Below are positions 28,125-51,993 of a stretch of DNA of 64,000 nucleotides, piece after piece. Origin of the DNA: Candidatus Deferrimicrobiaceae bacterium (GTDB lineage: Bacteria; Desulfobacterota; Deferrimicrobia; Deferrimicrobiales; Deferrimicrobiaceae); assembly GCA_963792415.1 (NCBI GenBank), contig CAWBVY010000006.1:718113-782112 (forward strand), read 5' to 3'. Both the position numbers and the translations under genes were made by a program. How positions within the stretch are numbered: position 1 is the first letter of the stretch; each line of letters opens with the position of its first letter. The notes under the pieces were generated by a model. The model ran no database searches. It saw only the letters and a list, made by a program, of their open reading frames with translations, and had not been told where the DNA came from.

Positions 28125-28149
28125 TCAGGGCATCCCCCGGGCCTGTGGA

Positions 28150-28641
28150 TCATGGAAGCTGCTTCGCCGCCTTCTCGACGGCGTCCGCCATCGCCTTCCG
28201 GCCGGCCCGGATCTTCGCCAGGATCTTCGGGGACGAAAGGGAAAGGATCTGCGCCGCGAGGTGCCCCGCGTTCTGCGCCCCCGCCTTTCCCACGGCCATG
28301 GTCGCCACCGGGACACCGGCGGGCATCTGAACGGTCGAGAGCAGGGCGTCGAACCCGCCAAGGGCCGACCCGGCCAGCGGCACCCCGATCACCGGGAGCA
28401 CCGTCTCGGCGGCGACGCACCCGGCGAGGTGCGCCGCGGCCCCCGCCCCGGCGATGATCACCGAGAACCCTTCCTTCTCCGCCCGGCGGGCCAGCGCCTG
28501 GGTCCGGCCCGGCGAGCGATGCGCGGAGGCGACGGTCATCTCGCACGGGATCCCGTAGCCCGACAGCACCTCCGCCGCCGCCCGCATCGTCTCCGCGTCG
28601 GAGGCGCTTCCCATGAGGATCAGGACCTTCCCGGCCATCAT
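28150..28641 (-). CDS. purE: N5-carboxyaminoimidazole ribonucleotide mutase
   Basis: Real start MMAGKVLILMGSASD inside a 632 aa artefactual ORF; 163 aa PurE; ATGA overlap with purD stop. Confidence 0.9.
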   Translation of the reverse strand: MMAGKVLILMGSASDAETMRAAAEVLSGYGIPCEMTVASAHRSPGRTQALARRAEKEGFSVIIAGAGAAAHLAGCVAAETVLPVIGVPLAGSALGGFDALLSTVQMPAGVPVATMAVGKAGAQNAGHLAAQILSLSSPKILAKIRAGRKAMADAVEKAAKQLP

Positions 28642-29924: not shown

Positions 29925-29951
29925 TCCATCTTCCTCCGCTTTGAAGTGCTA

Positions 29952-30115
29952 AGTGTAGCGTCTCGCAAATATCCTGGCATTCGAACGCCGCTGCATCCGC
30001 TCCAGCTTCGTTGCGCCAGTTCGACGTACTCTCCCGGTACGCCTTCACTGCCGCGCCTTGCTGGCGCGGCGCATCGACGCTCTCGATGCTCAGGCTATTT
30101 GCGAGACGCTACACT
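29952..30115. repeat. Structured intergenic repeat, copy A: 20 bp perfect terminal inverted repeats flanking a ~125 bp core
   Basis: AGTGTAGCGTCTCGCAAATA at 29952-29971 and its reverse complement at 30096-30115; core contains a local hairpin GCCGCGCC..GGCGCGGC; homologous to copy B at 50658-50803. Confidence 0.65.
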
Positions 30116-31676
30116 AGTGCCGGAAGTGCCGCACTCCGGTGAACACCATCGCCATCCCGTGCTCGTCGGCCGCGGCGATCACTTCCGCGTCCCGGACCGA
30201 CCCGCCCGGCTGGATCACCGCCGTGGCCCCCGCCCCGGCGGCCACGTCGAGACCGTCGCGGAACGGGAAGAAGGCGTCGGAGGCGACGACCGTCCCCTTC
30301 GTCGGGTGCTGCGCCTTCATCACCGCGATTTTCGCCGAGTCGACCCGGCTCATCTGCCCCGCCCCCACACCGACGGTGCGGTCCTTCATCGCGTAGACGA
30401 TCGCGTTCGATTTTACGTGCTTGCACACCTTCCACGCGAACAGCATCGCCTCGAGCTCGTCCGCGGTGGGCTTCCGCTTCGTCACCACCTTCAGGTCCTT
30501 CGGGTCGAGCACGTGCCGGTCGCCCGTCTGCAGGAGGAGCCCGCCGCTCACCCGCTTCATCTCGAACGTCCTGGCTTCCGACCACCGGAACGCGCCGCCC
30601 GTGGCCAGGACGCGGAGGTTCTTCTTCGCCGAGAGGATCTTCCGCGCCCCCTTGTCGTAGGAAGGGGCGATGACCGCCTCGAAGAAGGTGTTGGCGATCT
30701 CCCGGGCCGTCTCGGAGTTCACGGGCCGGTTGAATCCGATCACGCCGCCGTAGGCGGAGACGGGGTCGCAACTGCGCGCCTTCTTGAAGGCATCCAGGAG
30801 ACGGCGCTTCGAGACACCCACGCCGGAAGGGTTCGTGTGCTTGATGACGACCGCGGCGGGGATGGCGAATTCGAGAGCGAGCTGCAGCGCGGCGTCGATG
30901 TCGACGATGTTGTTGTAGGAGAGCTCCTTCCCCTGCAACTGCTGCGCGCCTCCCAGCGTCGGCTCGTCGGGCAGCGTGGCGTCGACGTAGAACGACGAGG
31001 CCTGGTGCGGGTTCTCGCCGTACCGGAGCCCCTGGAGTTGACGCCACTGGGCCGTGAAGGTCACGGGGAACGCCTCCACCCCTCCCTGCCCCGCGCCGAG
31101 GTAGTTCGAGATCGCCGCATCGTACCGTGCCGTCATTGCGAATGCCTTCCGCCCGAGTTCCTTCATGGTCTCCTCGTCGAGATTTCCGGCGTTCTTCTTC
31201 AGCTGCGCGAGGACCAGGGGGTAGTCGGCGGGGTCGCATACCACCGCGACCGACTGGGAGTTTTTCGCGGCGGACCGGAGCATCGAAGGTCCGCCGATGT
31301 CGATGTTTTCGATCGCCTCCTCCCGGGTGCAGCCGGGGCGGGCAACCGTGGCCTCGAAAGGATAGAGGTTCCCGATCAGCATGTCGAACGGGACGATCCC
31401 GTGCTCCGCGATCGTCTTCATGTGCGCCGCGTTCCCGCGCAGGGCGAGAAGCCCCCCGTGGATCTTCGGGTTCAAGGTTTTCACCCGCCCGTCCAGCATC
31501 TCGGGGAACCCCGTGTACTCCTCGATGAGGCGCACCGGGACCTTCTTCTCCCGAAGCAGTTTCGCCGTTCCTCCCGAGGCGTACAGCTCGACGCCGAGCC
31601 GGGAGAGCGCGGCGCAGAACTGCGCCACGCCGGTCTTGTCGGATACGCTGACGATCGCCCGATGGATTCTCGCCAT
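30114..31676 (-). CDS. purH: Bifunctional AICAR transformylase / IMP cyclohydrolase
   Basis: 520 aa [16 protein letters not shown]... MGS-like + AICARFT domains. Confidence 0.95.
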
Positions 31677-37651: not shown

Positions 37652-38158
37652 CTATTTCGCGGGGACCACCGACCGCACCTTTTCCCGGAACGGTTCCGCG
37701 AACCGATCAGGGAAGACGGCCGCGAGCCGCTTTCCCGCGGCCATGGCCGTGGGTGCCGCCTTCGACTCGCGCAGCAGCCGGGCGTCCCGCGGCAGCAGGA
37801 TCACCAGCAGGAACACGACCAGTATCGAGAACAGCGCGCCTTTCACCAGGCCCACCGCCATCCCCGCGAGCCGGTCCGTCCCCGACAGCGTGGACTTCCG
37901 TACCCACCCCTCGATCAGCCCCCCGATCAGCCGGACCGCGAGATACGCGGCGAGGAAGACGACCGCATACCCGACCACCTCGGCGTACTGGAAGGAGAGG
38001 CCGAGCCTCGCCTGCGCGAAGCCGTACCACCGGACCCCTGCCAGGTGTCCTGCGATCAACCCCCCGAGGGAGAAGAGCTGCCGGACCAGGCCCCGGACGA
38101 TTCCGGAGACGGCGAACCAGACGATCAGTAATGCAAGGATCAGATCGAGGAGGTTCAT
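37652..38158 (-). CDS. cvpA: CvpA-family membrane protein (colicin V production protein)
   Basis: 168 aa, 4 TM helices, CvpA-like. Confidence 0.8.
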   Translation of the reverse strand: MNLLDLILALLIVWFAVSGIVRGLVRQLFSLGGLIAGHLAGVRWYGFAQARLGLSFQYAEVVGYAVVFLAAYLAVRLIGGLIEGWVRKSTLSGTDRLAGMAVGLVKGALFSILVVFLLVILLPRDARLLRESKAAPTAMAAGKRLAAVFPDRFAEPFREKVRSVVPAK

Positions 38159-38303
38159 GCCCCCATTATGGCGTCACCGGAACGTCCCTTCAACAGAAAC
38201 ACCCGGCCGGTAATGGACTTTTTTCGGGATCCCTTCCGAAGGGTTGGAAACGGCGCGGGAAGCGGTGTATAAAGAATGTCCGGGGAAAGCCTCCCGGTAT
38301 GGC

Positions 38304-38390
38304 GCCGGAGTGGTGGAACTGGCAGACGCGCGGGACTCAAAATCCCGTGTCCGCGAGGACGTGAGGGTTCAAGTCCCTCCTCCGGCACCA
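38304..38390 (+). tRNA. tRNA-Leu (anticodon CAA), class II with long variable arm, encoded CCA
   Basis: Acceptor GCCGGAG/CTCCGGC; D-arm GTGGTGGAACTGGCAGACGC; anticodon stem CGGGA/TCCCG with loop CTCAAAA; long variable arm; T-loop TTCAAGT; 3' ACCA; promoter-like TTGGAA..TATAAA upstream. Confidence 0.9.
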
Positions 38391-38594
38391 CCTCAAATCA
38401 AGCAGTTACGCTCGACGCTGTGCCTCCGTTGATAGCACAGCCCTGCTTTCGCCGGGGCGTCTCCATCACCAAGACCACAATTGCGGGGGCGGGGGGAAAA
38501 TAATAGTGATTTTTTCCATCGGACTTGCCGATATTCCCTACGAGACAGAATTGTATCGATATTTCCCAGCCTTGGCTAAAAAAGGAGGGATTTG

Positions 38595-39161
38595 ATGAAA
38601 AGAACCGCCCTTTTATCGGTCTTGTTGTTGCTGGTCACCGTCCCGGCGTTCGCGGAAAACCCACCCAAAAACCCACCCAACTATGCAACCTTGAAACTTG
38701 GTGCGTATCTCCCACAGGCCGACGATATGGATAACTTCAACGACGGGTTCAACGTGGAAGTGGCGGTTGGCCAATATTTCAATCCGTATGCGGCTGTTGA
38801 TTTAAGCATCGGATATCTTAAGGCCAACGGCAGCGCTTCGGGAGTAAGTGGGCAGGTAAGAGCATACCCGGTCCTCCTGAGCATTAAGGGGGTGGTCCCG
38901 CTGTCCATTGTCGAACTGTATGGCCTTGTTGGGGGTGGGGTGTATTTTACTGACGCCCAAGTAAGCGGATTTGGGATTACTGATAGCGAGAGCGACATTA
39001 CAAGTGGATTCCAGGCAGGGGTGGGGGCAAACTTCAACTTGTCCGGGAACGTGTTCTTGGGAGTAGAAGGAAAATATTTTTGGGCATTTCCCGAGTTTGA
39101 CTCAGTCAAAGTCCATATCGACGGCATCCAAGCCACGGCAAATATCGGCTATCGTTTTTAG
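38595..39161 (+). CDS. Outer-membrane beta-barrel protein (OmpW/OmpA-like small porin family), low-GC
   Basis: 189 aa; signal peptide MKRTALLSVLLLLVTVPAFA; alternating amphipathic beta strands; C-terminal GYRF; about 50 % GC against about 70 % elsewhere; AAAGGAGGG RBS. Confidence 0.8.
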   Translation: MKRTALLSVLLLLVTVPAFAENPPKNPPNYATLKLGAYLPQADDMDNFNDGFNVEVAVGQYFNPYAAVDLSIGYLKANGSASGVSGQVRAYPVLLSIKGVVPLSIVELYGLVGGGVYFTDAQVSGFGITDSESDITSGFQAGVGANFNLSGNVFLGVEGKYFWAFPEFDSVKVHIDGIQATANIGYRF

Positions 39162-39216
39162 ATACCACCCGGTTTATGGTACATCGGGGGAGGGCCTCCG
39201 GTACCAAGGCAATCCG

Positions 39217-39254
39217 AAGGGCTGGCAATGATCCGTTGTCAGCCCTTTTTCATT
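39217..39254 (+). terminator. Rho-independent terminator downstream of the OMP gene
   Basis: AAGGGCTGGCAA-loop-TTGTCAGCCCTT stem followed by TTTTCATT. Confidence 0.5.
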
Positions 39255-39283
39255 GCGTGGGTGCTCGAAGGGGGTCCCCCGGG

Positions 39284-40264
39284 TCAGGCTTCCGGCAATA
39301 GGACGATTTTACCCCTTACCTGACGGTTGACCAGCCGCTTCATCGCGGCGGCGGCTTCGCTCAGAGGCACCCGTTCGCTGATGGATGGCCTCACCTTGCC
39401 GGCCGCGAACCATTCCATCAATTGCTTCACATTGCGCAGGTGGCCTTCGGGGTCGCGCTTGACCGATTCCCCCCAATAGACGCCGACGATGGAGCGTTCC
39501 TGGAGGAGAGCGAGGTTGATCGGAATCTTCGGGATGTCCCCGGCGGCGAACCCGATCACCAGGAGGCGCCCACCCCAGGCCGTGGCGCGCAGGGCGCTCT
39601 CGGTGTAGGGGCCGCCAACGGGATCGCAGACCACGTCCACTCCTTTGCCTCCCGTCAGCTCCTTGACGCGATCGCGCAGGTTTCCGGAGGCGTAGTTGAT
39701 GGTCTCATCGGCGCCCGCTTTCCGGCACAGGGAAAGTTTCTCCTCGCTGGAGGCGGCCGCGAGAACACGGGCGCCCATCACCTTGCCGATTTCGACGGCC
39801 GCAAGGCCGACGCCGCCCGCGGCTCCCAGCACCAGCAAGGTTTCGCCGGCACCGAGACGGCCCCTGTCCCGCAGTGCGTGGAGGGAGGTTCCATAGGTGA
39901 AGAAGAACGCGGCGCCGGTTTCGAAGTCCATCTCCCCGGGCAGCGTCGTCACCCGTCCGGCGTCCACCGCGCACTCCTCGGCGAAACCACCCCAGCCGGC
40001 GATGGCGCTGACCCTGTCGCCCGCATGGAAACCCCGCACATCCGCTCCGACCTCGACGATCACGCCAGCGATTTCCGTACCGGGCGAAAAGGGAAGGGGC
40101 GGCTTCACCTGGTAGAGACCCTGCGCCATCAAGGCATCGGGGAAGTTGAGCGAAGCGGCCTTTACATCGATCAGGACCTGGTGGGGACCGGGGCGCGGAG
40201 ATTCGATCTCCCGCATCGCGAGATGTTCCAGCGGACCGAAGGCGGTGCACAGCAGCGCTTTCAT
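39284..40264 (-). CDS. qor: NADPH:quinone oxidoreductase (zinc-type ADH/MDR family)
   Basis: 326 aa; LVLGAAGGVGLAAVEIGK cofactor motif. Confidence 0.85.
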   Translation of the reverse strand: MKALLCTAFGPLEHLAMREIESPRPGPHQVLIDVKAASLNFPDALMAQGLYQVKPPLPFSPGTEIAGVIVEVGADVRGFHAGDRVSAIAGWGGFAEECAVDAGRVTTLPGEMDFETGAAFFFTYGTSLHALRDRGRLGAGETLLVLGAAGGVGLAAVEIGKVMGARVLAAASSEEKLSLCRKAGADETINYASGNLRDRVKELTGGKGVDVVCDPVGGPYTESALRATAWGGRLLVIGFAAGDIPKIPINLALLQERSIVGVYWGESVKRDPEGHLRNVKQLMEWFAAGKVRPSISERVPLSEAAAAMKRLVNRQVRGKIVLLPEA

Positions 40265-40370
40265 GCCTTCCTCACGGGGTCACCATTTCCGAAGCGGTCC
40301 CCTTCCCCGAAAGGTGCCCTGCCACCGCGTCCCCGGGTTCGAGATACGCGAATCCATCCAAGGTACGCCG

Positions 40371-41447
40371 CTACTTTCCCGAGACCTCCGCGACGGCTTT
40401 CATGATGTTGTCCGAGGAGATCTCCAAAATGCCGTACAAGGTCTTTGTCTTCCCGGTGCGCGAATCGAGCACGGCCACGGAAGGGGTGCCCGGTACCTTG
40501 AACTTCTTGACGAGGGCGCTGAAGTACTGCATGCCGGCCATGACGTCCACGTAATTCAACGGGACATACTTCACGCCGAGGGGGGAAACCGCCGCCTGGA
40601 CATCCTCCGGCGTCGGTTCCTTTGTTCTCTTCGCAAGGGCCGCCATGGCTTCCCGGATCTCGAGATATTTCGCCTTCTCACGGACGATGAAGGACAAATT
40701 GTACGGAATGAAGTTGAAGGTTTCCGGGTGGACCGGGTAATCCACGAAAACCACCTTCGCCTTCCGCATGGCTTTTCGGGCACCCTTCAGGATCTCCGGC
40801 TCGGCGACGCGGCACGCGGGGCAGAACCAGTCCGTGATCATGTAGACCTCCGTACTGCTTTCCTCATCCCCGAAGGCGAGGGACTTCACCGGCAGACCGG
40901 CCGCAAACGCGTCGGGTTTCGAAAGACCCATCGCGGTTACGCCCATGCCGGCGAGGAACGCGAAAAGAATCAAAGCCGTCTTGCCCGCGAGCCGTTTCAT
41001 CTCCATGTTCCTTTCTCCGCCACGAATTCGGATTCCAACCCCGGGCAATCGCTCCAGGGCGATCAGGACGCACGCCGTTACGACCGAGAGGGCGATTCCG
41101 ACGCAGAGCGGGCACCACCTTCCAATAACATACTTCTGATACCAGACGAGTACGAATTCTGAGCCGAGTGCCCCGGAGAGCAGAACGGGGACCAGAAAAC
41201 CGGAGAACCGGAATCGGTTCCTTGTGAGAAAAGCGAGGCCGCACAATGTGAAATATCCGACGCCGAGGGGGGAAAGCGGGAGTCCGAAAATCCGGTACAG
41301 GTGCGTTTCCTCGCAACCACCGGAGCAGATCCCGAGCCAGGACAGGACGGAAAGGATCCACGCCGCGGCAAACGGCACCGCGATCCAATACCCGCGGTGC
41401 GATTTCCACAGACCGGCCGAAGCGGTTGTCTCCAGTGCAGCGCCCAT
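40371..41447 (-). CDS. Vitamin K epoxide reductase (VKOR) fused to a thioredoxin-like (DsbA-type) domain
   Basis: Internal start MGAALETT (ATG 41447); VKOR TM core with CSGGC and WCPLC; C-terminal thioredoxin fold with WFCPAC. Confidence 0.8.
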   Translation of the reverse strand: MGAALETTASAGLWKSHRGYWIAVPFAAAWILSVLSWLGICSGGCEETHLYRIFGLPLSPLGVGYFTLCGLAFLTRNRFRFSGFLVPVLLSGALGSEFVLVWYQKYVIGRWCPLCVGIALSVVTACVLIALERLPGVGIRIRGGERNMEMKRLAGKTALILFAFLAGMGVTAMGLSKPDAFAAGLPVKSLAFGDEESSTEVYMITDWFCPACRVAEPEILKGARKAMRKAKVVFVDYPVHPETFNFIPYNLSFIVREKAKYLEIREAMAALAKRTKEPTPEDVQAAVSPLGVKYVPLNYVDVMAGMQYFSALVKKFKVPGTPSVAVLDSRTGKTKTLYGILEISSDNIMKAVAEVSGK

Positions 41448-41475
41448 GCGTGAATCCTTTCCTTTTGATGATATC

Positions 41476-41493
41476 CGATTTCCCGGGAAATCG
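41476..41493. promoter_or_regulatory. 18 bp perfect palindrome CGATTTCCCGGGAAATCG, 29 bp upstream of the VKOR-Trx start codon (candidate operator)
   Basis: Exact reverse-complement symmetry read from the sequence; lies in a 318 bp non-coding gap. Confidence 0.4.
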
Positions 41494-41765
41494 CCGATCC
41501 CGAAAGCCTGGTGCACGCTGTGTCCCGCGTTCTTCTCGCTCAAGCCCTCAGTGTCTGGAAGCAGGCGTTGGGTCGGCGTTCCGCCGCCGGGGCGAATCGG
41601 TTCGCGGAGAAGATCTGCAGCGAGTTCCCCATGATGTTCCGGCGCGTCTCCCTGCCTTCTTTCCGGACCAGAGGAATTCCTCCCCAAGGCACGGTTTCAC
41701 GGCATCCTTCAGCCGCACCATCGAGGGTTTCGGAGAACCGATGATCCCCGGCAGATTCATCACCC

Positions 41766-42302
41766 TCACCGATCCCCCTGCGGTGGAGGCGGGACGGCAT
41801 GGTCCGAAAAATACCGTTTCCACGGTCCGCTGCCTTCGATGAACGGCTGCAGGATCGCCCTTTCGCCCTGGACCGTGTGCATCAGGTCGTGCCCTGCCCA
41901 CTGGTGGATCAACTCCCCGAGGGTGACCATTCCCAGCTCCTGGTGCCGCGCCGTGCGGCTCAAATCGTCGCCCCCGACCTTCGACAACACCACCATGCTC
42001 TCCGCCCGAAGCCGAACGAAATCGCCGGCCAATTCGACCGGGGTCGGATTTCCGCCCGGCCCCTTTCCCTCTTCCCCCGGCTGATACGCCGGAAAATCCT
42101 CGCCGCGTAACAGATACCCCACACGCGCCGGGAACACCGACCTCTCGGTGTCGACGATGTGCCGTAAACATTCGTACGCCGACCACTCCTTCGGCGCCGG
42201 CTTCCATTGAAACAGCTCCGGCGACAGCATCGATGCCAACTGGAGCCACCGTTGCGGCGTCGCCTCGAGCACCGGAAGGACCAACCGGAATATGGGCAGC
42301 AT
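41766..42302 (-). CDS. DinB_2/YfiT-like metal-dependent hydrolase superfamily protein
   Basis: 178 aa; WSAYECLRHIVDTE and HQWAGHDLMH His-motifs typical of the DinB_2 four-helix bundle. Confidence 0.7.
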   Translation of the reverse strand: MLPIFRLVLPVLEATPQRWLQLASMLSPELFQWKPAPKEWSAYECLRHIVDTERSVFPARVGYLLRGEDFPAYQPGEEGKGPGGNPTPVELAGDFVRLRAESMVVLSKVGGDDLSRTARHQELGMVTLGELIHQWAGHDLMHTVQGERAILQPFIEGSGPWKRYFSDHAVPPPPQGDR

Positions 42303-42430
42303 GCTTCCTCCTGGGAATCCGGGTCTTCGACCGGATCGGCAGACCCGATAGAAATCGACGGGTCATAATTGATACGCGATGCCCTTGCCCTGTTAACCAG
42401 AAACCGTGCCGCGGGGATGCCGGGGGGACT

Positions 42431-43630
42431 TCATACGCGCACCTCCGGGGGCGCCTTGACCGTCGCGACCATTACGGCGGCGGCCGCCGCGAGGAGGGCC
42501 GCGATGCGGAACGCCGAGGCGTAACCGTGGGTGGTGTCGAAGATCCATCCCCCCGCCAACGGGCCGATCATCCCGGCAACCCCCCATGCCGTCAATAGGA
42601 GGCCGTAGTTGTTCCCGAGGTTCCGCATCCCGAAATAATCGGCGGTCGTCGACGGGAAGACGGCGAGCTGCGAACCGTAGCAGTATCCGATGAGGAAGAC
42701 GGCGGCGAAGAGCATCGGCACGGTGGAAACCCCGGGGGCGAGGAAGAGGAGCAGTGCCGTCGCGCCCATCACCAGGGTGAGCGTGCGTACGCGTCCGAAG
42801 TGATCCGACATCCACCCCGAGGCGATCCGCCCGCACCCGTTCCCCACCGAAAGCATCCCCACGGAGAGGGCGGAATCGCGGGCGGAGAACCCCGCCCCCA
42901 GCGCGAAGGCGGCGAGATGCCCGATCACCATCAGTCCCGCCGCGGTGCCGAAGGCGTACGCGACCCACATCCGGCGGAAGGCGCCGGTACCCACCATCTC
43001 CCGCGGGAGGAAATCCCGGCCGCCCCGCGCCGCCCCCTTCCCCGCCGCCGGAGGACTCCATCCCGGAGGGCGCCACCCTTCCGGCGGGTTCCGCAGGAAC
43101 ATCGACCCGGCGACCGTCACCGCCAGAAACCCCGCGCCGAGGATGCCGAAGGTGTCGCGCCACCCGAAGCGGTCGATCATGTATCCGGCCAGCGGGGCGA
43201 TCACCGCGCCCCCCGCGCCGTATCCCATCACCATCATTCCCGTGACCAGCCCCCGCCGCTCGGGGAACCATTTCATCCCGACGGAGAGGGGGCACGTGTA
43301 GCCGATACCGCTGCCCAGCCCCACGACGACGCCGTAGCAGCCGTATAACCATGCCAGGGAGTCCGTGTACCGGGAAAGGAAGATCCCCGCGGAGAAGAGA
43401 AGCGCGCCGACGAGGGAGACGGCCGCGGGACCCCGGCGGTCCTGCCACCGCCCCCCGACCAGCACACCGACGGCGATGAAGGCGATCGAGAGGGTGAACG
43501 CGATGGAGAGCTCCGAGCGCGTCCAGCCGAATTCGCGCTGGAGGGGGGTGAGAAACACGCTGTAGACGTACGCGGCGCCGAGGCAAAGGTTCAAGCTCAC
43601 GCCGCCGGCGACGCGGAACCACCGGTTCAC
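42431..43630 (-). CDS. MFS transporter, oxalate/formate antiporter (OFA) family
   Basis: 399 aa, 12 TM; OFA-like N-terminus MNRWFRVAGGVSLNLCLGAAYVYSVF. Confidence 0.85.
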   Translation of the reverse strand: MNRWFRVAGGVSLNLCLGAAYVYSVFLTPLQREFGWTRSELSIAFTLSIAFIAVGVLVGGRWQDRRGPAAVSLVGALLFSAGIFLSRYTDSLAWLYGCYGVVVGLGSGIGYTCPLSVGMKWFPERRGLVTGMMVMGYGAGGAVIAPLAGYMIDRFGWRDTFGILGAGFLAVTVAGSMFLRNPPEGWRPPGWSPPAAGKGAARGGRDFLPREMVGTGAFRRMWVAYAFGTAAGLMVIGHLAAFALGAGFSARDSALSVGMLSVGNGCGRIASGWMSDHFGRVRTLTLVMGATALLLFLAPGVSTVPMLFAAVFLIGYCYGSQLAVFPSTTADYFGMRNLGNNYGLLLTAWGVAGMIGPLAGGWIFDTTHGYASAFRIAALLAAAAAVMVATVKAPPEVRV

Positions 43631-43658
43631 GCCGCCCCCCTCCCGCGGTGGAACAGGG

Positions 43659-44351
43659 TCACTTGACCGAGATCAGCTCCACCTCGAAGATCAGCGTGGC
43701 GTTCGGACCGATGTCGCGGCCCGCCCCCCTCTCGCCGTACGCGAGATTCGGAGGGATGAAGAGCTGCCACTTCGCCCCTTCCTTCATCAGCTGGAGCGCC
43801 TCGGTCCAACCGGCGATCACGCCCGAGACGGGGAACGTCGCCGGCTCGCCGCGCTTGTAGGAACTGTCGAACTCCGTCCCGTCGATCAGCGTCCCCTTGT
43901 AGTGGGTCGTCACCGTGTCGGTCGCCTTCGGGCTTTTCCCCGTGCCGGGGGTGATCACCTTGTACTGGAGTCCGCTCGGGAGGGACTTCACCCCCTCCTT
44001 CTTCGCGTTCTCCGCGAGGAACTTCTCCCCTTCCACCTTGTTCTTCTCCGAGAGTTTCTGCATCGCCTCCGCCTTCTTCGCCATCAGCGTCTTCTGGAAG
44101 CCCTCTATCGCCTGGCGCGCCTGGTCCTCGGTGAGGAGGGTTTTCCCCCCGCCGTAGCTGTCCTTCAACCCTTTTGCCAGAATGTCCGGGTCCACCTCGA
44201 CGGCTCCCCGCTTCAGGTTTCCCCCGATGTCCATCCCGATGCTGTAGCTGATCTTCTCCTTGTCGCTTTTCAATTCCGGCCCATCCGCCGCAAACGACAC
44301 CCCCGAAAAGGCAACCATGGCGCACAACGCCACCGCAAGCCGTCTCCTCAT
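43659..44351 (-). CDS. fkpA: FKBP-type peptidyl-prolyl cis-trans isomerase (FkpA/Mip-like), periplasmic
   Basis: 230 aa; signal peptide, dimerisation helix, FKBP domain [15 protein letters not shown]...GWTEAL. Confidence 0.85.
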
Positions 44352-47040: not shown

Positions 47041-47763
47041 TCAGCCCCTCCCCTGCCGGCTTCCGAAGATCGCGGTCCCCACGCGGACCATCGTCGCCCC
47101 TTCCCCGATCGCCTGTTCGAAATCGTTGGACATTCCCATGGACAACTCCCCGAGCGCGGCGCCGGGGATCTCCCGTGCCAGCGCGTCCCGCAGCTCCCGC
47201 AGCCGCGCGAAGTGAGGCCGGCTCCCCTCGGGGTCGGCGGAAAACGGCGGGATCGCCATGAAACCCTCCACCCGCACTCCGGGGAGTCCGGCGGACTCGC
47301 GGAGAATCGCGCGCAGATCGGCGGGGTCGGCTCCCGCCTTGCTCCCCTCGCCGCCGAGATTGACCTCGATCAGTACCCGTGACGTCTTTCCGGATTCCGC
47401 GGCACAACGCGAGATCTCGCGGAGCCGCCTGGCGGAATCCGCCGTCTGGATCCAGGAGAACAGGGCGACCGCCCTGCGGACCTTGTTCCCCTGCAGACGC
47501 CCGATCATGTGCCATTCGGCGCCCGGAAGCGCCGGGGTCTTCTCCTCCGCCTCCTGGACGTAATTTTCGCCGAACACCGACAACCCCGCCGCGTGCGCCT
47601 CGAGGACCCGCGCGAGCGGCTGGGTCTTCGAAACCGCGATCAGCTTCACGGAACCGGCCGGCCTCCCCGACCGTCGCACGGCGTCCGCGATCCGTTCCCG
47701 CACCCACGCCGCACGCTCCCCGAGCGGCGCACCCTCGCCCGGAGGCGATCCGGGAGGACTCAT
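47041..47763 (-). CDS. yggS: PLP homeostasis protein YggS (alanine racemase N-domain family)
   Basis: Internal start MSPPGSPPGE of an 830 aa artefactual ORF; LIAVSKTQP PLP-lysine motif; ATGA overlap with maf. Confidence 0.85.
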   Translation of the reverse strand: MSPPGSPPGEGAPLGERAAWVRERIADAVRRSGRPAGSVKLIAVSKTQPLARVLEAHAAGLSVFGENYVQEAEEKTPALPGAEWHMIGRLQGNKVRRAVALFSWIQTADSARRLREISRCAAESGKTSRVLIEVNLGGEGSKAGADPADLRAILRESAGLPGVRVEGFMAIPPFSADPEGSRPHFARLRELRDALAREIPGAALGELSMGMSNDFEQAIGEGATMVRVGTAIFGSRQGRG

Positions 47764-48389
47764 CGCGCCCTGCCCGCGAAGGCGTACCAGGCCGGGCCGC
47801 TGCGCGTGACACGGATCAGCCGCGCCCGCGCGAGCATCTCCATGACGCGGGTCATCGGAAGGCCCACCACGTTCGAGAACGACCCCGCGACCCGGTCGAT
47901 GAGGAGCATCCCCGCCCCCTGCGCCGCGTACGCCCCCGCCTTGTCGTCGCACTCCCCCGTGCGGGCATAGGCTGCGATCTCCGCCGCCGTGAGGGGGCGA
48001 AATCGCACCCGGGTCACCTCCGTGCCGAGATCCCGGTAGCCGCGCTCCTGGCACAGGAGGCAGATCGCCGTGTGCACCCGGTGCTCGCGGCCGGCGAGGC
48101 GGGAGAGCATCCTCCTCGCCTCCGCGCGGTCCCGTGGCTTCCCGAGGATCCGCCCGTCCGAGATCACGATCGTGTCCGCCGACAGGACGAAGGACGACGG
48201 GTGAAGCAAAGCCACCGCCTCCCCCTTTTCGAGAGCGGCCCTGCGGACGAACCCGGAAGGAGACTCGCCGGCTCGCGGACTTTCGTCGACCCCCGACGGG
48301 ACCACGCGGAACGGAACACCGACGGCGGCGAGAAGCTCCCGACGGCGGGGTGACTCGGAGGCGAGGATCATGCGGGCCGACGGGACCAT
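47760..48389 (-). CDS. maf: Maf-like nucleoside triphosphate pyrophosphatase (septum formation protein Maf)
   Basis: 209 aa; ILASESPRRRELL and SADTIV Maf motifs. Confidence 0.85.
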   Translation of the reverse strand: MVPSARMILASESPRRRELLAAVGVPFRVVPSGVDESPRAGESPSGFVRRAALEKGEAVALLHPSSFVLSADTIVISDGRILGKPRDRAEARRMLSRLAGREHRVHTAICLLCQERGYRDLGTEVTRVRFRPLTAAEIAAYARTGECDDKAGAYAAQGAGMLLIDRVAGSFSNVVGLPMTRVMEMLARARLIRVTRSGPAWYAFAGRAR

Positions 48390-48508
48390 CGGGTTGCATT
48401 ATATGGGAATCCCGCCTGTCACGGCAAACGTTCCCGCGCCTCGCTTGCCCTCCGGGGGCGCCCCGTGGTAAGAAGATAGCAACTTCAGGATCGGGGTGGA
48501 GTTCCGAC

Positions 48509-48910
48509 ATGGCGTTCAAGACGATCACCGTGAAAACCGAAAACGCGCAGCAACTGGTCGACATCACCCAGCAGGTCCGCCTCGTGGTGCGGGAGAGCGG
48601 CGTGAAAAGCGGCGTCTGCCGGGTTTTCATCCCCCATACCACGGCGGCGGTCACCATCAACGAGAACGCCGACCCGAACGTCCGGCGGGACATCCTGGAC
48701 CGCCTCGAACAGGTCGCCCCTTCCGACGGGACGTACCACCACACCGAGGGGAATTCCCACGCCCACATCAAGTCCAGCCTCTTGGGATCGAGCGTTTCCG
48801 TGTTCGTCGAGGCCGGCCAGCTGGTGCTCGGGACCTGGCAGTCGGTCTTCCTGTGCGACTTCGACGGTCCCCGCACCCGGAACGTGATGGTGCGGATCAC
48901 GGCGGGGTGA
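48509..48910 (+). CDS. yjbQ: YjbQ/UPF0047 family protein
   Basis: 133 aa MAFKTITVKTENAQQLVDIT... typical YjbQ. Confidence 0.8.
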   Translation: MAFKTITVKTENAQQLVDITQQVRLVVRESGVKSGVCRVFIPHTTAAVTINENADPNVRRDILDRLEQVAPSDGTYHHTEGNSHAHIKSSLLGSSVSVFVEAGQLVLGTWQSVFLCDFDGPRTRNVMVRITAG

Positions 48911-48917
48911 CGACCCG

Positions 48918-50642
48918 CTACCGGAAGAAGGCTTCGTAGCGGGCGCGCAGCGCGTTTCTTCTCAGGCCCCCGTCGATCACCCCCCAGGGGAAAAACTCCC
49001 CGCCGCCTTTCTCCCGGAAGACGACAGACGACAGCGCCCCGGCCAACCCGGGCGCGGAGCGCAGGAGCTTTCCGGGAGGTGCCGTCCGAAGGCTCGCGGA
49101 CACCCGGCGGTCCGAGAGCCCGAGGTACCCCTGCACGACCGCGTCCCACGGGGTCGAAGCGGAGACCCGGACGTTGGGGACCGCTCGTACGATGGCACTC
49201 ACGCCCTTCCCTCGCGACTTCAGCTCCTCCTCCGGGATCATCGAAGCCCATTGCAGCGGAGTGAACGGCTTGGGAACGAAGGGAGAGAGCACCGCCGTCA
49301 CGACGCCCATCCGGCCGACCCCGCGCGCGACCTCGAGAACGCGCTCCCGGAAGGTCCCGAGGAACCGCGCGATCCCCCCGACCTCCTCCTCCCAAAGCGC
49401 CCCGGGAAGGCCAAGCAGGAAATACAGCTTGAACGAGACGATTCCCGAACGGGCCAGGACCTCCGCGGCGGCGAAGAACACCTCGTCCGGCACCCGCTTC
49501 CCGACGCGCGCGCGCAGCCGGGCATCGCCGCATTCCGGCGCCAGCGCCACCGTGCGGTGTCCGCTCCGTGCGAGGATCTCCGCGATTTCCTCGTCGACGA
49601 GGTCCGCGCGGACGGAGGCCGGCGAAACCGTCCCGCCGCGCTCGAGGATCTCACGCGCCAGCTCCCGGAACGGACGCCAGTCGAGGACCGCGGCGCCGAT
49701 GAGACCCACCTTTCTGCGGTGCGGCCACGCCGCGTCGACGGCCGCGCGCACGCGGTCGATGGGAAACTCCCGGAAGGAGGGGCAGGCGTGGGCCGCTGCG
49801 CAGAACCCGCACATCCCCGGGCAGCCGCGGGAAGTCTCGACGAGGGACATTCTGCCCAACTCCGTCTCCTCCGACAGGATGACGGGCGGAGCCGGAGACA
49901 GGGAGCGAAGATCGAGGACCTCGCGCGCGACGCGGGCGGGGAACCCCGGGAACGGTTCGATCGCCCGAAGCACGGGAAGCCGGCCGGAGGTCCGCTCCGC
50001 CGGGGACGACTCCCCGTATTCCGGCCGATATCCCCCGGGGACATACACGCCCGGAATCGCGGAGAGTTCCCTTCGGTATCCGGAATCCCCCGCAGGCCCG
50101 GGTCCATGGTCCAGGAGGAGGTCCACCGCGCGCTCCCCGTCGCCCACGACCACGGCATCGGCGAAGACCCCGACCGGCTCCGGATTGAGCGACGCGGCGA
50201 ACCCGCCGGCGACAACGAGGGGGTACCGGGCGCCGGAGGCGGCACGATCCTCCCGGAATGGGGGAATCCCGCCCGCGGCGAGGATCGCGGGGACGTTCAG
50301 AAGATCGTTCTCGTAGGAGAGGGAGATCGCGACGACGTCGAACGAGGAAAGGGGACGCCCGCTCTCGAGCGTCCTCCCCTCGGTGGGCGAATTTACGGAA
50401 CCGGCCCCCGAGCCCCGCGGCGGGGCACGCCGACGCCCGTCCCCCGACAGGAAGACCCGCTCGCAAAGGGCGTCCGGACGCGCGTTGATCCGGGCGTAGA
50501 TCAGGAGGAACCCGAGGTTCGACATCCCCGCCGCGTACCGGTTGGGGTAGACGAGCGCGACGCGGATTCCGACTCCCCAATCCTTGCGCGCGGCGAAGAT
50601 CTCTTTTTCGGGCGCGGAACCCCCGCGGTGCGGCCTTCCCAC
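48918..50642 (-). CDS. B12-binding-domain radical SAM protein (TIGR03960-like), start uncertain
   Basis: N-terminal IRVALVYPNRYAAGMSNLGFLLIY, radical SAM Cys cluster CPGMCGFCAAAHAC; first plausible start is GTG at 50642 (the track ORF extends over repeat B). Confidence 0.75.
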   Translation of the reverse strand: MGRPHRGGSAPEKEIFAARKDWGVGIRVALVYPNRYAAGMSNLGFLLIYARINARPDALCERVFLSGDGRRRAPPRGSGAGSVNSPTEGRTLESGRPLSSFDVVAISLSYENDLLNVPAILAAGGIPPFREDRAASGARYPLVVAGGFAASLNPEPVGVFADAVVVGDGERAVDLLLDHGPGPAGDSGYRRELSAIPGVYVPGGYRPEYGESSPAERTSGRLPVLRAIEPFPGFPARVAREVLDLRSLSPAPPVILSEETELGRMSLVETSRGCPGMCGFCAAAHACPSFREFPIDRVRAAVDAAWPHRRKVGLIGAAVLDWRPFRELAREILERGGTVSPASVRADLVDEEIAEILARSGHRTVALAPECGDARLRARVGKRVPDEVFFAAAEVLARSGIVSFKLYFLLGLPGALWEEEVGGIARFLGTFRERVLEVARGVGRMGVVTAVLSPFVPKPFTPLQWASMIPEEELKSRGKGVSAIVRAVPNVRVSASTPWDAVVQGYLGLSDRRVSASLRTAPPGKLLRSAPGLAGALSSVVFREKGGGEFFPWGVIDGGLRRNALRARYEAFFR

Positions 50643-50657
50643 GGCTAAGTGTTGCGC

Positions 50658-50803
50658 TTCATGGATACGGTGTCGCACCGAGAGGGTCGATGCGCCGCAT
50701 CCGGCAAGGCGTCGTGACCGAGGCGTACTTGACAAGTACGGTGAGGGAGCGCAACGCAGCCGGGGCGGATGCAGCGGCACTCGAATGCAACCGTATCCAT
50801 GAA
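50658..50803. repeat. Structured intergenic repeat, copy B: 14 bp terminal inverted repeats, nested palindromes, inverted orientation relative to copy A
   Basis: TTCATGGATACGGT at 50658-50671 and its reverse complement at 50790-50803; central palindrome CGTACTTGACAAGTACG; about 75 % identity to copy A over ~140 nt. Confidence 0.65.
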
Positions 50804-50826
50804 ACGCAGCACTAAAGTTCCGACGG

Positions 50827-51993
50827 CTACTCCACCCGCCGACGAAGGAACGTCGGAATCTCGAACTCGTCGAGCGACTCGATCTCCGCCTCCTTGTCGA
50901 TCAGGGGAAGGTCCTCCAGGCGCTCCTCGAGCGTCTTCGGCGCGGCGGCCCGCAGGAACGCGGGGGTCTGCAGATCGTCGGCCCGGCTTACAAGCTTGAT
51001 CCCCTTCCGCGGATTCCTCCACGCCCCCTCCGCGATGCCCGGCTCGAATCCTGTCGCGACCACCGTGACCTTCAGTTCGTCCCCCATCGTTTCGTCGACC
51101 ACCGTACCGAAGATGATGTTCGCCTCGTCGGAAGCCTCCTCGCGGACCAGGCTCGCCGCGTCGTTCACCTCGCTCAGGGACAGGGACGTCCCGGCCGTGA
51201 TGTTGATGAGGACACCCCGGGCTCCGCGGATCGAGACGTCCTCGAGGAGCGGGCTCGAGATCGCCTTCTCCGCAGCGGCGACCGCCCGGTTCTGGCCGGA
51301 CGCCGCTCCCGTCCCCATCAACGCCACGCCCATCCCCGACATGATCGTCTTCACGTCGGCGAAATCGAGGTTGATGTAGCCGGGCCTCGTGACCAGCTCG
51401 GAGATCCCCCGGACCGCCTGGAAAAGAACGTCGTCCACCTTCCGGAACGCCTCGACGAAGCGCATGTCCTTCCCGGCGATCAGGAGCAGCTTCTCGTTCG
51501 GGATGATGATGATCGTGTCCACGAGGCTCCGAAGCTCCTTCGTGCCGCCGTCCGCCTGCCGTTTCCTGGTGAGTCCCTCGAAGGGGAACGGCCGCGTCAC
51601 GACCGCCACCGTGAGCGCCCCGACCTCCCTCGCCACCTCGGCGACCACCGGCCCCGCGCCGGTCCCCGTCCCGCCGCCGAGGCCCGCCGTGATGAATACC
51701 ATGTCCGCGCCGGTGAGGGCCTCCCGGATCAGGTCCCGGTCCTCGAGGGCGGCCTGACGGCCGATGTCGGGATTGGCGCCCGCGCCGAGCCCCTTCGTCA
51801 GCCGGGCCCCCAGTTGGAGCTTGAGAGGCGCCAGGCTCCGCGACAGCGCCTGGGCGTCGGTGTTCGCGGTGATGAACTCCACGCCCTGCAACCCTTCCTC
51901 GATCATGGTGTTGATGGCGTTCCCGCCGCCGCCGCCCACGCCGAACACCTTGATGACGGCGTGACAGCGGTTCTCCTCGACGATCGTGAACAT
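50827..51993 (-). CDS. ftsZ: Cell division protein FtsZ
   Basis: Start [23 protein letters not shown] (alternative upstream ATG at 52029); tubulin signature GGGTGTG; conserved C-terminal peptide. Confidence 0.9.

Follow-up and report, generated by a model that had tools for sequence, protein, structure and literature searches.

A previously undescribed family of palindromic, probably mobile repeats at TA sites and stop codons in Deferrimicrobiaceae operons

Results

Two related palindromes lie in operon spacers of the window

In the 64-kb window (the whole stretch of DNA analysed here, 64,000 nucleotides), two spacers between minus-strand genes each hold a long palindromic element. The first, which we call copy B, lies between ftsZ, whose TAG stop codon is at 50827..50829 on the minus strand, and a radical SAM gene with a probable GTG start at 50640..50642 on the same strand. 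Copy B proper is a 164-bp imperfect palindrome that runs from GTG to CAC at 50649..50812 on the minus strand (nhmmer E = 9e-44), 14 nt past the ftsZ stop and 6 nt before the presumed start codon of the radical SAM gene. It is bordered on one side by a TAA direct repeat at 50646..50648 (TAA on the plus strand, TTA on the gene strand) and on the other by its partner at 50813..50815, together a putative 3-bp target-site duplication. The initial annotation had given the element an extent of 146 bp and a terminal stem of 14 bp. The 14-bp arms TTCATGGATACGGT/ACCGTATCCATGAA and the perfect palindrome CGTACTTGACAAGTACG that it described are all present in the sequence, the palindrome forming the apex at 50724-50740 as a variant specific to the ftsZ-site copy; the element itself is larger, comprising the GTG...CAC span (50649-50812) with TAA repeats outside it, and the terminal stem reaches ~23 bp with 2 mismatches, the arm GTGTTGCGCTTCATGGATACGGT at 50649..50671 pairing with the arm at 50790..50812. 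Within these terminal arms lie the two arms of a conserved core, both read on the minus strand: the left arm GCATTCGAGTGCCGCTGCATCCGC at 50765..50788, which is the stretch used as the search pattern, and the right arm CGCCTTGCCGGATGCGGCGCATCGACCCTCTCGGTGC at 50675..50711, which falls outside the search pattern and in which, among the matches listed, conservation is 85% or more in most columns of the family alignment and 95% or more in many. The family reference ('pattern') strand is the minus strand in copy B, which is the mRNA sense of ftsZ and of the radical SAM gene.

Copy A proper occupies 162 bp between purD and purH (29953..30114, plus strand; nhmmer E = 6e-45) and is antisense to the majority orientation of the family. 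Its terminal base (30114) and the flanking TA (30115-30116) together form the TAG stop codon of purH (30114..30116, minus strand). A search of the whole 64-kb window with nhmmer returned only these two copies, each in a non-coding position between annotated genes. As the initial annotation had stated, A and B are inverted relative to each other with respect to their minus-strand genes, and both follow a stop codon, A by overlapping the purH TAG and B with its flanking repeat beginning 11 nt past the ftsZ stop.

The reverse complement of B had been proposed to match A, and we found the two to be homologous: it aligns across 29951-30116 with a mean column identity of 80% (MAFFT, with flanks), and a Smith-Waterman alignment gives 117/167 identities. 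The local alignment score of 59 compares with 10.3 ± 1.7 (maximum 18) for 1000 dinucleotide-preserving shuffles, and because the resulting z is 28.8, the likeness of A and B cannot be put down to chance matching of GC-rich sequence. Folding gives a single long, imperfect hairpin for each copy (z of -7.4 to -12 against shuffles). Their terminal stems, earlier said to differ completely in sequence, have in common an outer GTGYWGCG and the family template GTG-N5-TyTCryAAATA. The TA/TNA flanks, the stop-codon overlap, these conserved outer termini, the orientation bias, the lack of terminator features and the near-invariance of B among diverged relatives had escaped the first reading of the sequence.

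The copies belong to a dispersed family with a covarying hairpin

Scanning a genome collection, we found at least 119 loci in at least 48 assemblies, mostly from Ca. Deferrimicrobiaceae (MBNT15), with the number of loci per assembly reaching at least 10, which upholds the proposal that A and B belong to a repeat family. This family is previously undescribed, and its hosts are Deferrimicrobiaceae and other GC-rich bacteria. Full-length matches measure 164-169 bp among the loci listed (nhmmer), and nested variants 225-300 bp. Terminal inverted repeats are present, with arms of 23-27 bp, and the internal core is more conserved than they are; it persists in subfamilies labelled as other phyla. The stems of the subfamilies co-vary. 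Other repeat families, with different cores, carry the same terminal repeat.

The hairpin is maintained by paired changes. Across 81 copies among the matches listed, 97.7% of pair positions stay paired and compensatory changes occur at 31 of 58 pairs, with 470 cells showing a double change, values reached by 0 of 500 shuffles; in helix 1 of the same copies, 97.2% of positions are paired and 20 of 23 pairs have compensatory changes. This overwhelming covariation bears out the earlier suggestion that the element is constrained in structure. The two strands are not equivalent: of 85 copies among the matches listed, 84 fold better as the complement of the reference strand, which has conserved G-U pairs, and the advantage averages 16.6 kcal/mol.

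The ends read (C)TA/GTG...CAC/TA(G), the slashes marking the element boundaries, or are enclosed by TAA/TTA direct repeats. Among 97 copies in the matches listed, position -1 on the left is A in 87, position -2 on the left is T in 65, and position +1 on the right is T in 73. Direct repeats of 3 bp (TAA/TTA) were seen 11 times among the family copies listed, against 3.4 expected under permuted pairing (p = 0.0002). The left TA is kept better than the right among listed copies in which no stop codon uses the left TA (26/33 vs 17/33). Assigning stop codons by a local frame test, we found one within a few nucleotides of an element end in 58 of these 97 copies, in agreement with the proposed position at gene 3' ends. 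Of the 46 left-abutting cases among the matches listed, 27 have an upstream stop that overlaps the boundary TA, and in 18 left-abutting cases the stop lies at offset +3, 16 of these being TAG. Orientation relative to the genes is biased 42:12 among the matches listed, so the element is not orientation-neutral, contrary to the earlier suggestion of an orientation-independent hairpin.

Orthologous sites are found filled and empty

The possibility of mobility had been raised, and comparison of loci by flank anchoring revealed insertion polymorphism at nine orthologous sites, comprising both window copies and seven others. In four pairs (L008/L032, L041/L046, L119/L005 and L051/window), the filled allele exceeds the empty one by the element length plus 2-3 nt. 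For L008/L032, an empty GTAA corresponds to a filled CTA[..]TAG; in the last pair it is the window that carries the empty allele (28147..28170, minus strand), reading GCGAAGC against GCTAA[element]TAAGC in L051, with TAA duplicated. Some empty alleles have no TA at the insertion point, namely those at the ftsZ site, with the Shine-Dalgarno-like AAGAG or GGGAG, and that of L035, with TCGG.

Copy A, which is specific to its lineage, is a young insertion and a dispensable one. It is present in the window and in L120, has decayed by internal deletion in L126 (PurD 94% identical), where TAGTGTAGCG joined to AGACGCTACACTTAG remains, and is absent from four sequenced loci of three lineages with PurD 82-88% identical. 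At least 13 lineages carry copy B, whose distribution within its own clade is patchy: it is missing from L127 (ftsZ 1.8% diverged from that of the window) and L144-149, and three outgroups lack it as well. At one TA site, L052 and L035 have different subfamilies. Nested insertions are tolerated in the apex of the element, and the copies of L002 and L084 that consist of the left half only are truncated remnants beside ordinary genes, not the ends of insertion sequences.

The copy at ftsZ is nearly invariant

Across seven lineages, copy B varies at 2 of 168 columns, against differences of 12-26% at ftsZ third codon positions and 6-12% in the 300-nt flanks of B; the module nested inside B diverges by 2-29%. 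The right-hand host part of the element, which is not forced by the search pattern, shows 0-3 differences in 103 nt, and the nested modX at the same locus 2-26 in ~90 nt. Comparing L011 with L095, we counted 0 changes in the 167 nt of the host element and 8 in the 78 nt of the nested module. The ftsZ-site copy has evolved at least 10x slower than ftsZ third positions and ~7-10x slower than the nested module, an apparent conservation that assemblers may exaggerate by collapsing the common core of the repeat. The B variant is confined to the ftsZ site (12/12 metagenome matches). Copy B is probably an old insertion, and since it is almost invariant in several lineages, its constraint was probably gained in place.

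Searches for known signals and for a source of mobility

The element is neither an intrinsic terminator nor a promoter nor a known RNA family. A terminator scan gave 0 sites at both copies, whose stems are followed by TTAGCCGTGG and TTAGCACTTC with no U-tract, and no sigma-70-like promoter was found at either copy. Searching Rfam 15 at the gathering score across the whole window, we found that tRNA alone reached threshold; at E <= 10 on both copies, the best sub-threshold E was at least 0.5, and neither the nested modules nor the second repeat family had an Rfam match. An integron attC site was rejected: the ends are GTG/CAC, the sole GTTGCGC is interior and unpaired with any RYYYAAC, and the genomic context is purH-purD and ftsZ. 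Comparison by eye with the consensus also disposed of a sigma-54 promoter in the core, where the spacing of TGGCA...TGCA is wrong, and of a kink-turn, attC-like R boxes and a tRNA-like T-arm. Viral contigs yielded 0 matches, plasmids (PLSDB) none, and blastn with word size 11 none in 20,395 records of 5,426 E. coli genomes.

We looked for an autonomous element or transposase with matching terminal repeats and found none in the window, in ~800 kb of loci (8-kb blocks around matches) or among multi-copy ORFs. Terminal-repeat-only matches outside known copies numbered 5, all of them other small palindromic repeats or degenerate; among inverted-repeat pairs 0.6-3.5 kb apart, the only case was two copies of the element flanking host DNA in L052. 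When 601 ORFs were clustered to find multi-copy genes, just ordinary paralogues such as ABC ATPases emerged, and Pfam identified no transposase among the window ORFs at 38-50 kb.

Discussion

Copies A and B are, we think it likely, members of a ~165-bp non-autonomous family of palindromic mobile elements, MITE-like and with ERIC/Correia-like anatomy. Bacterial MITEs typically have 5'-TA-3' termini, form long stem-loops and are co-transcribed; RNase III cleaves Correia, and an RNase E effect of ERIC depends on orientation (PMC2229807, PMC3184786, PMC10969869). The element described here would insert at TA or TNA, preferably in CTAG or CTNAG, and duplicate its target, and in a genome of ~68% GC the usable TA sites would largely be TAA/TAG stop codons and short operon spacers. 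Whichever way round it lies, the element starts with G, so that a copy landing in the TA of a stop codon would restore TAG and the upstream gene would therefore remain intact. The likely mover would be a DDE transposase acting in trans, putatively IS630/Tc1-like (TA) or IS5/Harbinger-like (TNA). Once inside an operon, the element is predicted to be co-transcribed as a hairpin of roughly 58-60 base pairs, which could act as an RNase/exonuclease determinant or merely keep the flanking stop and start signals close.

The features of the MITE class can be set beside those of the family. The element is small (<300 bp), has terminal inverted repeats and occurs as dispersed polymorphic copies, and a target-site duplication is seen, with the caveat that some empty alleles are without TA. 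Several observations speak against a MITE. No autonomous partner turned up in the window, in the loci or among multi-copy ORFs; the core is better conserved than the ends, which is the reverse of a classical MITE; the change in orthologous copies is far too slow for a decaying selfish insertion; the 42:12 orientation bias is unexpected under neutral insertion; and the left and right TA are unequally kept, with several empty sites having no TA.

Some credit goes to a less likely account, in which the element is a cis-acting RNA or DNA module kept by selection for a host function, such as an mRNA processing or stability signal, a means of keeping translation coupled from one side of the insertion to the other, or a site for protein binding, with transposition ancient or secondary and copies now moving mainly by recombination. 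The near-invariance of B favours this account (2/168 columns against 12-26% at ftsZ third positions and 6-12% in flanks; 0-3/103 nt in the host part against 2-26/~90 in modX; 0/167 against 8/78 in L011/L095), although collapse of the common core during assembly may inflate such conservation, and so do the restriction of the B variant to the ftsZ site, the 42:12 bias, the persistence of the core in subfamilies labelled as other phyla and the better fold of the complementary strand in 84 of the 85 listed copies, with its conserved G-U pairs. Set against it are the lineage-specific copy A, mostly deleted in a close relative without visible consequence, the absence of B within its own clade (L127, L144-149), the occurrence of both orientations in many unrelated operons, the tolerance of nested insertions in the apex, and the lack of any Rfam, promoter or terminator match. 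A related and rather doubtful idea is that of a sequence-constrained module with a ~110-nt conserved core, freely co-varying basal stems and phylum-specific subfamilies, whose copies are held near-invariant by host use or by dedicated machinery. Were this so, the element would be an operon-internal device that keeps stop and start codons in proximity or sets mRNA processing, or alternatively the recognition site of a mobilisation or homing system of a non-classical kind, one reading the core and not the ends.

Two other modes of movement fit the data poorly. A REP/REPIN, that is, two inverted REP units moved by a RAYT (TnpA-REP, Y1 HUH) acting on single-stranded hairpins, would share with the family its long hairpin, high copy number, intergenic position at gene 3' ends and strand-asymmetric fold (16.6 kcal/mol), and the core contains GCCGGATGCGGCG, which matches E. 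coli REP. We consider it very unlikely, however, given that a conserved 5' GTAG head is lacking and the ends are GTG/CAC with TA/TNA direct repeats, that one 165-bp palindrome, bounded by terminal inverted repeats, makes up the unit in place of two 20-40-nt REPs and a spacer, that blastn found no match among 5,426 genomes of E. coli, in which REP and ERIC abound, and that the loci (8-kb blocks around matches) contain no RAYT-like multi-copy ORF. More improbable still is a non-autonomous element of IS200/IS605 type (PATE) or an omega-RNA-like scaffold, which would insert, with no duplication, on the 3' side of a short target motif and be maintained by RNA-guided homing. The better conservation of (C/T)TA on the left flank than on the right would suit this scheme, as would an identical element with sharp boundaries in diverged flanks and, at the ftsZ site, adjoining nucleotides that differ between filled and empty alleles in the manner of a co-conversion tract. 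But the terminal inverted repeats are clear and the TAA/TTA direct repeats match, the left/right asymmetry is insufficient, insertion 3' of CTA within CTAG does not give the T found on the right flank in 73 of the 97 listed copies, Rfam shows no match to HEARO or IS605-related RNAs, and neither tnpA nor tnpB was seen nearby. Lastly, a GC-rich hairpin starting 11 nt past a stop codon might suggest that ftsZ is followed by an intrinsic terminator, or by no more than a fortuitous GC-rich inverted repeat; this reading is refuted by the missing T-run after the stem and the 0 terminator sites at both copies, by the A/B alignment (z = 28.8) and by homologous copies at no fewer than 119 loci, and we give it practically no weight.

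Under the preferred MITE-like interpretation, the family adds a new and abundant repeat to the genomes of the poorly known, uncultured MBNT15/Deferrimicrobiaceae and has relatives in genomes labelled as several other GC-rich phyla. It has practical consequences. The element breaks metagenome assemblies, as many contigs stop within it, which is what typically marks a repeat of this kind; it misleads gene callers, with ORFs running into the element and the downstream start and Shine-Dalgarno sequence displaced; and its presence or absence can be used as a strain marker. Ends that regenerate a stop codon show how a TA-targeting element colonises the operons of a 68% GC genome with genes unharmed. 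At the ftsZ site, a frozen host element and a diverging nested module share one locus, a clean natural experiment that bears on an old puzzle from ERIC, the strong conservation of some MITE-like palindromes.

ERIC/IRU (~127 bp) resembles the family in being an imperfect palindrome over its whole length with 5'-TA-3' at both termini (PMC3184786, PMC2229807). It also lies between genes in transcribed regions, in many cases at a gene 3' end, and occurs in both orientations, with orientation mattering for its effect. ERIC is reported (Wilson & Sharp 2006; Hulton 1991) to have longer variants produced by internal insertions at fixed sites, and a sequence conservation that is puzzlingly high. The two differ in that they have no sequence similarity (blastn, 5,426 E. 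coli genomes) and in their hosts, here MBNT15/Deferrimicrobiaceae and other GC-rich soil and groundwater phyla; the present element is longer (~165 bp) and GC-rich, has much longer terminal stems (~23-27 bp) and ends that regenerate a stop codon, and falls into subfamilies with co-varying stems. REP/BIME elements likewise are GC-rich palindromes that lie dispersed at gene 3' ends, form module mosaics and are candidates for mRNA stabilisation or protein binding, whereas REP units are 20-40 nt long, have a GTAG head, are mobilised by RAYT and have neither terminal inverted repeats nor a target-site duplication, defining traits that the present family does not show.

Correia/NEMIS of Neisseria parallels the family in its ~24-26-bp terminal inverted repeats, TA duplication, length of 100-160 bp and internal-block variants, and in co-transcribed long hairpins, predicted for the element here and known as RNase III substrates for Correia (PMC2229807, PMC10969869). 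There is no sequence homology between the two. Correia carries promoters and an IHF site, whereas the present element has no promoter-like site and a core more conserved than its terminal repeats. Chunjie, a MITE found in Geobacter uraniireducens, comes from a related environmental lineage, is of similar size (~180-235 bp), has many partial copies and is inserted inside an operon without disrupting it (PMC10969869). Compared by description, it is set apart from our family by a recognised parent IS, and it is not reported to be associated with stop codons or to form a palindrome over its whole length, with a core that crosses phyla.

The two window copies belong to a widespread family

Direct re-reading of 50658-50803 recovered the palindromic sequence 3' of ftsZ as described in the initial annotation, within a larger feature: copy B proper runs from GTG to CAC at 50649-50812 (+ strand) and is flanked by TAA at 50646-50648 and 50813-50815, and its terminal stem, given as 14 bp, is actually 23 bp with two mismatches. 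The reverse complement of copy B aligns over its full length with 29951-30116 in the purD-purH spacer (copy A), with a local alignment score of 59 compared with 10.3 +/- 1.7 in 1000 dinucleotide-preserving shuffles (z = 28.8), upholding the homology proposed for the two copies. Contrary to the description, their terminal stems do not differ completely: the outer 8-9 bp are common to both. Each copy forms one long imperfect hairpin (z -7.4 to -12), and a family nhmmer profile matched only these two copies in the 64-kb window. All four neighboring genes (purH, purD, ftsZ, and the radical SAM gene) are minus-strand genes, so copies A and B are indeed opposite in orientation relative to transcription.

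Scanning one representative genome per species with the core GCATTCGANNGCCGCTGCATCCGC, we found at least 119 matching loci, and the matches listed cover at least 48 assemblies, as many as ten loci (a lower bound) falling in a single assembly, bearing out the proposed repeat family. Most loci listed are from Candidatus Deferrimicrobiaceae or "Deltaproteobacteria CSP1-8 / GWA2_65_63"-type metagenome-assembled genomes, a group corresponding to candidate phylum MBNT15 (PMC9386147); among them, locus L078 (CAVXQW010000011.1) is the orthologue of the window ftsZ locus. Divergent subfamilies occur in genomes assigned, by record label alone, to Acidobacteriota/Thermoanaerobaculales (loci L001, L070, and L102), Actinomycetota (L068, L097, and L110), Gemmatimonadota (L044), Nitrospirota, and Chloroflexota. 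In many cases a contig breaks off within the element, as is typical of an assembly-breaking repeat. Searches of viral contigs, plasmids, and E. coli genomes gave no matches to the element, and no Rfam family matches it.

Alignment of 82 simple copies over ~165 nt defined conserved outer ends, (C)TA followed by GTG and CAC followed by TA(G); a terminal stem of ~23-27 bp with the template GTG-N5-TyTCryAAATA, whose variable positions mark subfamilies and are always matched by the partner arm; a highly conserved core, whose two arms are GCATTCGAGCGCCGCTGCATCCGC and CGCCTTGCCGGCGCGGCGCATCGACGCTCTCGGTGC, the latter lying outside the search pattern; and an apex formed by a variable hairpin at the tip. 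RNAalifold on 81 copies placed 58 pairs, 31 of them with compensatory double changes. By an independent count, 97.7% of cells were paired compared with 88.4% in shuffles, and 470 cells were changed on both sides compared with 147, with none of 500 shuffles reaching the observed values; structures shifted by 1-3 columns were paired in just 24-42% of cells. These counts show the compensatory pattern suggested initially to be real at the scale of the family. The complement of the reference strand (the reference is the minus strand at copy B) is the more stable strand in 84 of 85 copies, with mean folding energies of -101 and -84 kcal/mol, respectively. Across 81-85 copies, reference-strand mismatches are mostly between two pyrimidines, equivalent to purine-purine (G-A) on the complement, which also holds the conserved G-U pairs and folds ~17 kcal/mol better.

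TA flanks and overlap with stop codons

The bases next to the element are far from random across 97 copies: on the left, A occupies position -1 in 87 and T occupies -2 in 65; on the right, T occupies +1 in 73 and A occupies +2 in 48. Flanks with the same three bases on both sides (TAA/TAA or TTA/TTA) were observed 11 times, compared with 3.4 expected from random re-pairing of left and right flanks (p = 0.0002). The location at gene 3' ends also holds family-wide, with a stop codon (frame-aware) -15 to +25 nt from an element end in 58 of the 97 copies. Among 46 left-abutting stops, 27 overlap the boundary TA, 18 of these at offset +3 (TA plus the first G of the element), and 16 of the 18 are TAG. 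The symmetric termini mean that, whichever way round the element enters the TA of a TAA or TAG stop, a TAG codon is restored. Both window copies lie beside stop codons, as annotated: the purH stop at 30114-30116 is a TAG made of TA plus the terminal base of copy A, at that copy's other end, directly after the native ...FRH C terminus, and a perfect TTA duplication flanks copy B on the gene strand, starting 11 nt past the ftsZ stop. Abutting stops are at the left end of the element in 42 copies and at the right in 12 (p = 5e-5), the favored orientation placing the less stable reference strand in the mRNA, and the left TA is kept better than the right, even where no stop codon uses it.

Filled and empty alleles

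By comparing loci with one another, we identified orthologous sites with and without the element (filled and empty alleles), the gain in each pair being the element plus 2-3 nt. The empty and filled alleles read GTAA and CTA[..]TAG for L008/L032, and ATAG and ATAA[..]TAG for L119/L005; the empty allele of L041/L046 reads CTAA, and further pairs are L052/L035, L018/L092, and L011 and L095 versus L067. At 28147-28170 (minus strand), the window is empty (GCGAAGC) and L051, from a related genome, reads GCTAA[..]TAAGC, with a TAA duplication; in L051 the upstream gene has lost its last 4 codons and has 5 element-encoded codons instead. Window GCG AAG versus L051 GCT AAG is a synonymous change that makes a CTAAG target.

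The 3' regions of purH and ftsZ both have filled and empty alleles, in agreement with the mobility that had been considered. The purH-purD site is filled in the window and in L120, a contig with identical PurD, and empty at four sequenced loci from three lineages (PurD 82-88% identical; 12-22-nt spacers); the spacer is 31 nt in a fifth contig, represented only by its gene calls. At L126:288-333 (PurD 94% identical), a remnant of copy A retains the outer stem only, TAGTGTAGCG joined to AGACGCTACACTTAG, with ~140 internal nt deleted between GCG microhomologies and a short hairpin left. This presence and absence, together with the remnant, argue that copy A is a young insertion and that the family decays through hairpin-mediated deletion. 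L052 and L035 have different subfamilies (76% identity) in one TA site at the same position and orientation, which indicates that scarce targets are re-used. That site (L052:3295-3460, L035:6893-7060) lies at a stop codon, and its flanks are 86-92% identical between these two related genomes. The L052 copies at 2027-2191 and 3295-3460 are inverted around ~1.1 kb of host DNA in a composite-like arrangement, and the left copy is missing in L035.

Nested modules and a second repeat family

At least 14 copies contain modX, a module of ~78-90 nt at one fixed internal position within the conserved GTTGCGC motif (L011, L013, L016, L027, L028, L035, L095, L112, and the ftsZ-site copies L133-L141), which is also found alone (L055 5910-5991, L017 430-532). 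Between lineages modX diverges by 2-29% and the host element is nearly identical; the 8 differences between L011 and L095 are all inside modX, leaving their 167-nt host element identical. The apex can be replaced by a second hairpin module. A second palindromic family, fam2 (~210 bp; L067:2843-3051, minus strand; related copies at L092, L024, L060, L062, L083, L030, L005, L098, and L113), has similar terminal repeats (GTGCGGCGTTTCATAAATACGG) and an unrelated palindromic core. The occurrence of the same ends on different cores argues that the ends are what a transposase would recognize. Copies of fam2 sometimes adjoin main-family copies.

Conservation and patchiness at the ftsZ site

The ftsZ site is filled by the simple form in the window, L078, L128/L142, L132, L136, L137, and L143, filled with nested modules in L133-L135 and L138-L141, and empty in L127, L144-L149, and three outgroups. 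The variant here, with the stem TTTCATGGATACGG and the apex CTTGTCAAG, was seen nowhere else (12 of 12 metagenome matches and L078 are at this site). Just 2 of 168 columns vary among simple-form copies from seven lineages that differ by 12-26% at ftsZ third codon positions and by 6-12% in the 300-nt flanks, and divergence returns within ~10 nt of the element. The 103-nt right half, outside the search pattern, has 0-3 differences at this site, compared with 2-26 per ~90 nt for modX in the same copies. Presence does not track the ftsZ tree: L127 is empty although its ftsZ differs from that of the window by just 1.8% over 900 nt. The empty L127 and L144-L149 alleles fall within the filled clade. 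Exactly at the insertion point, empty alleles have AAGAG or GGGAG (L127:2404-2440; L144-L149:2104-2140), a likely Shine-Dalgarno sequence for the GTG start of the radical SAM gene; in filled alleles it is replaced by TTTA[..]TTAG, apparently leaving that gene without an obvious ribosome-binding site.

Judged from sequence, the near-invariance, the patchiness, and the ribosome-binding site at the insertion point, together with the orientation bias and flank asymmetry, point either to purifying selection acting on the element at its site or to non-vertical, precise spread. Assembler collapse of the shared core could inflate apparent conservation, but it cannot explain the invariance of variant-unique parts, nor the same invariance in the 494,800-bp long-contig bin containing L078. 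Speculatively, the tightly folded hairpin might hold the downstream start as near to the ftsZ stop as it is in the empty allele.

Other features of the window

A tRNA gene (38304-38387, 52.7 bits) lies at the edge of a lower-GC stretch at 38000-42000 (GC 0.56-0.63 versus ~0.68 elsewhere) that encodes an outer-membrane beta-barrel protein, a zinc-dependent dehydrogenase, and a VKOR/thioredoxin-like protein and may be an acquired island. For three consecutive ORFs at 41548-44325, minus strand (272, 409, and 232 aa), Pfam gave no match at E <= 0.001. An 830-aa mechanical ORF at 47041-49533, minus strand, overlaps the end of the radical SAM ORF (48918-50645) and has a Pfam match only at residues 619-826 (Ala_racemase_N, YggS-like); the real gene within it is probably much shorter.

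Identity of the element

Target duplications are TA, often within CTAG, for IS630/Tc1 elements and TNA for the IS5-IS1031/IS427 groups and for Harbinger. Non-autonomous elements with a duplicated TA/TNA target are the best-supported reading of the family, and we infer that a DDE transposase supplied in trans would move them; no transposase partner was found in the window, in ~800 kb of loci, or among multi-copy ORFs. The orientation bias, the flank asymmetry, the near-invariance, the patchiness, and the ribosome-binding site at the insertion point are unexplained by this MITE reading. An intrinsic terminator and a sigma-70 promoter were rejected, as scans gave no such sites at the copies; REP/REPIN, PATE, and attC were rejected on their defining features, which the element lacks, and an ERIC homologue on the absence of matches in E. 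coli genomes.

Since both window copies lie inside operons without promoter or terminator signals, they are presumably co-transcribed. Correia elements undergo RNase III cleavage and ERIC has an orientation-dependent RNase E effect (PMC2229807, PMC3184786, PMC10969869); by analogy, such effects are likely RNA-level consequences here as well. The family, its covariation, and its filled and empty sites support the initial view of a structured, possibly mobile repeat. Two features merit pursuit: ends that let insertion coexist with stop codons, and an old copy at the ftsZ 3' end that is unusually strongly conserved. Together, these results describe a new family of a known, MITE-like kind, close in anatomy to ERIC and Correia.
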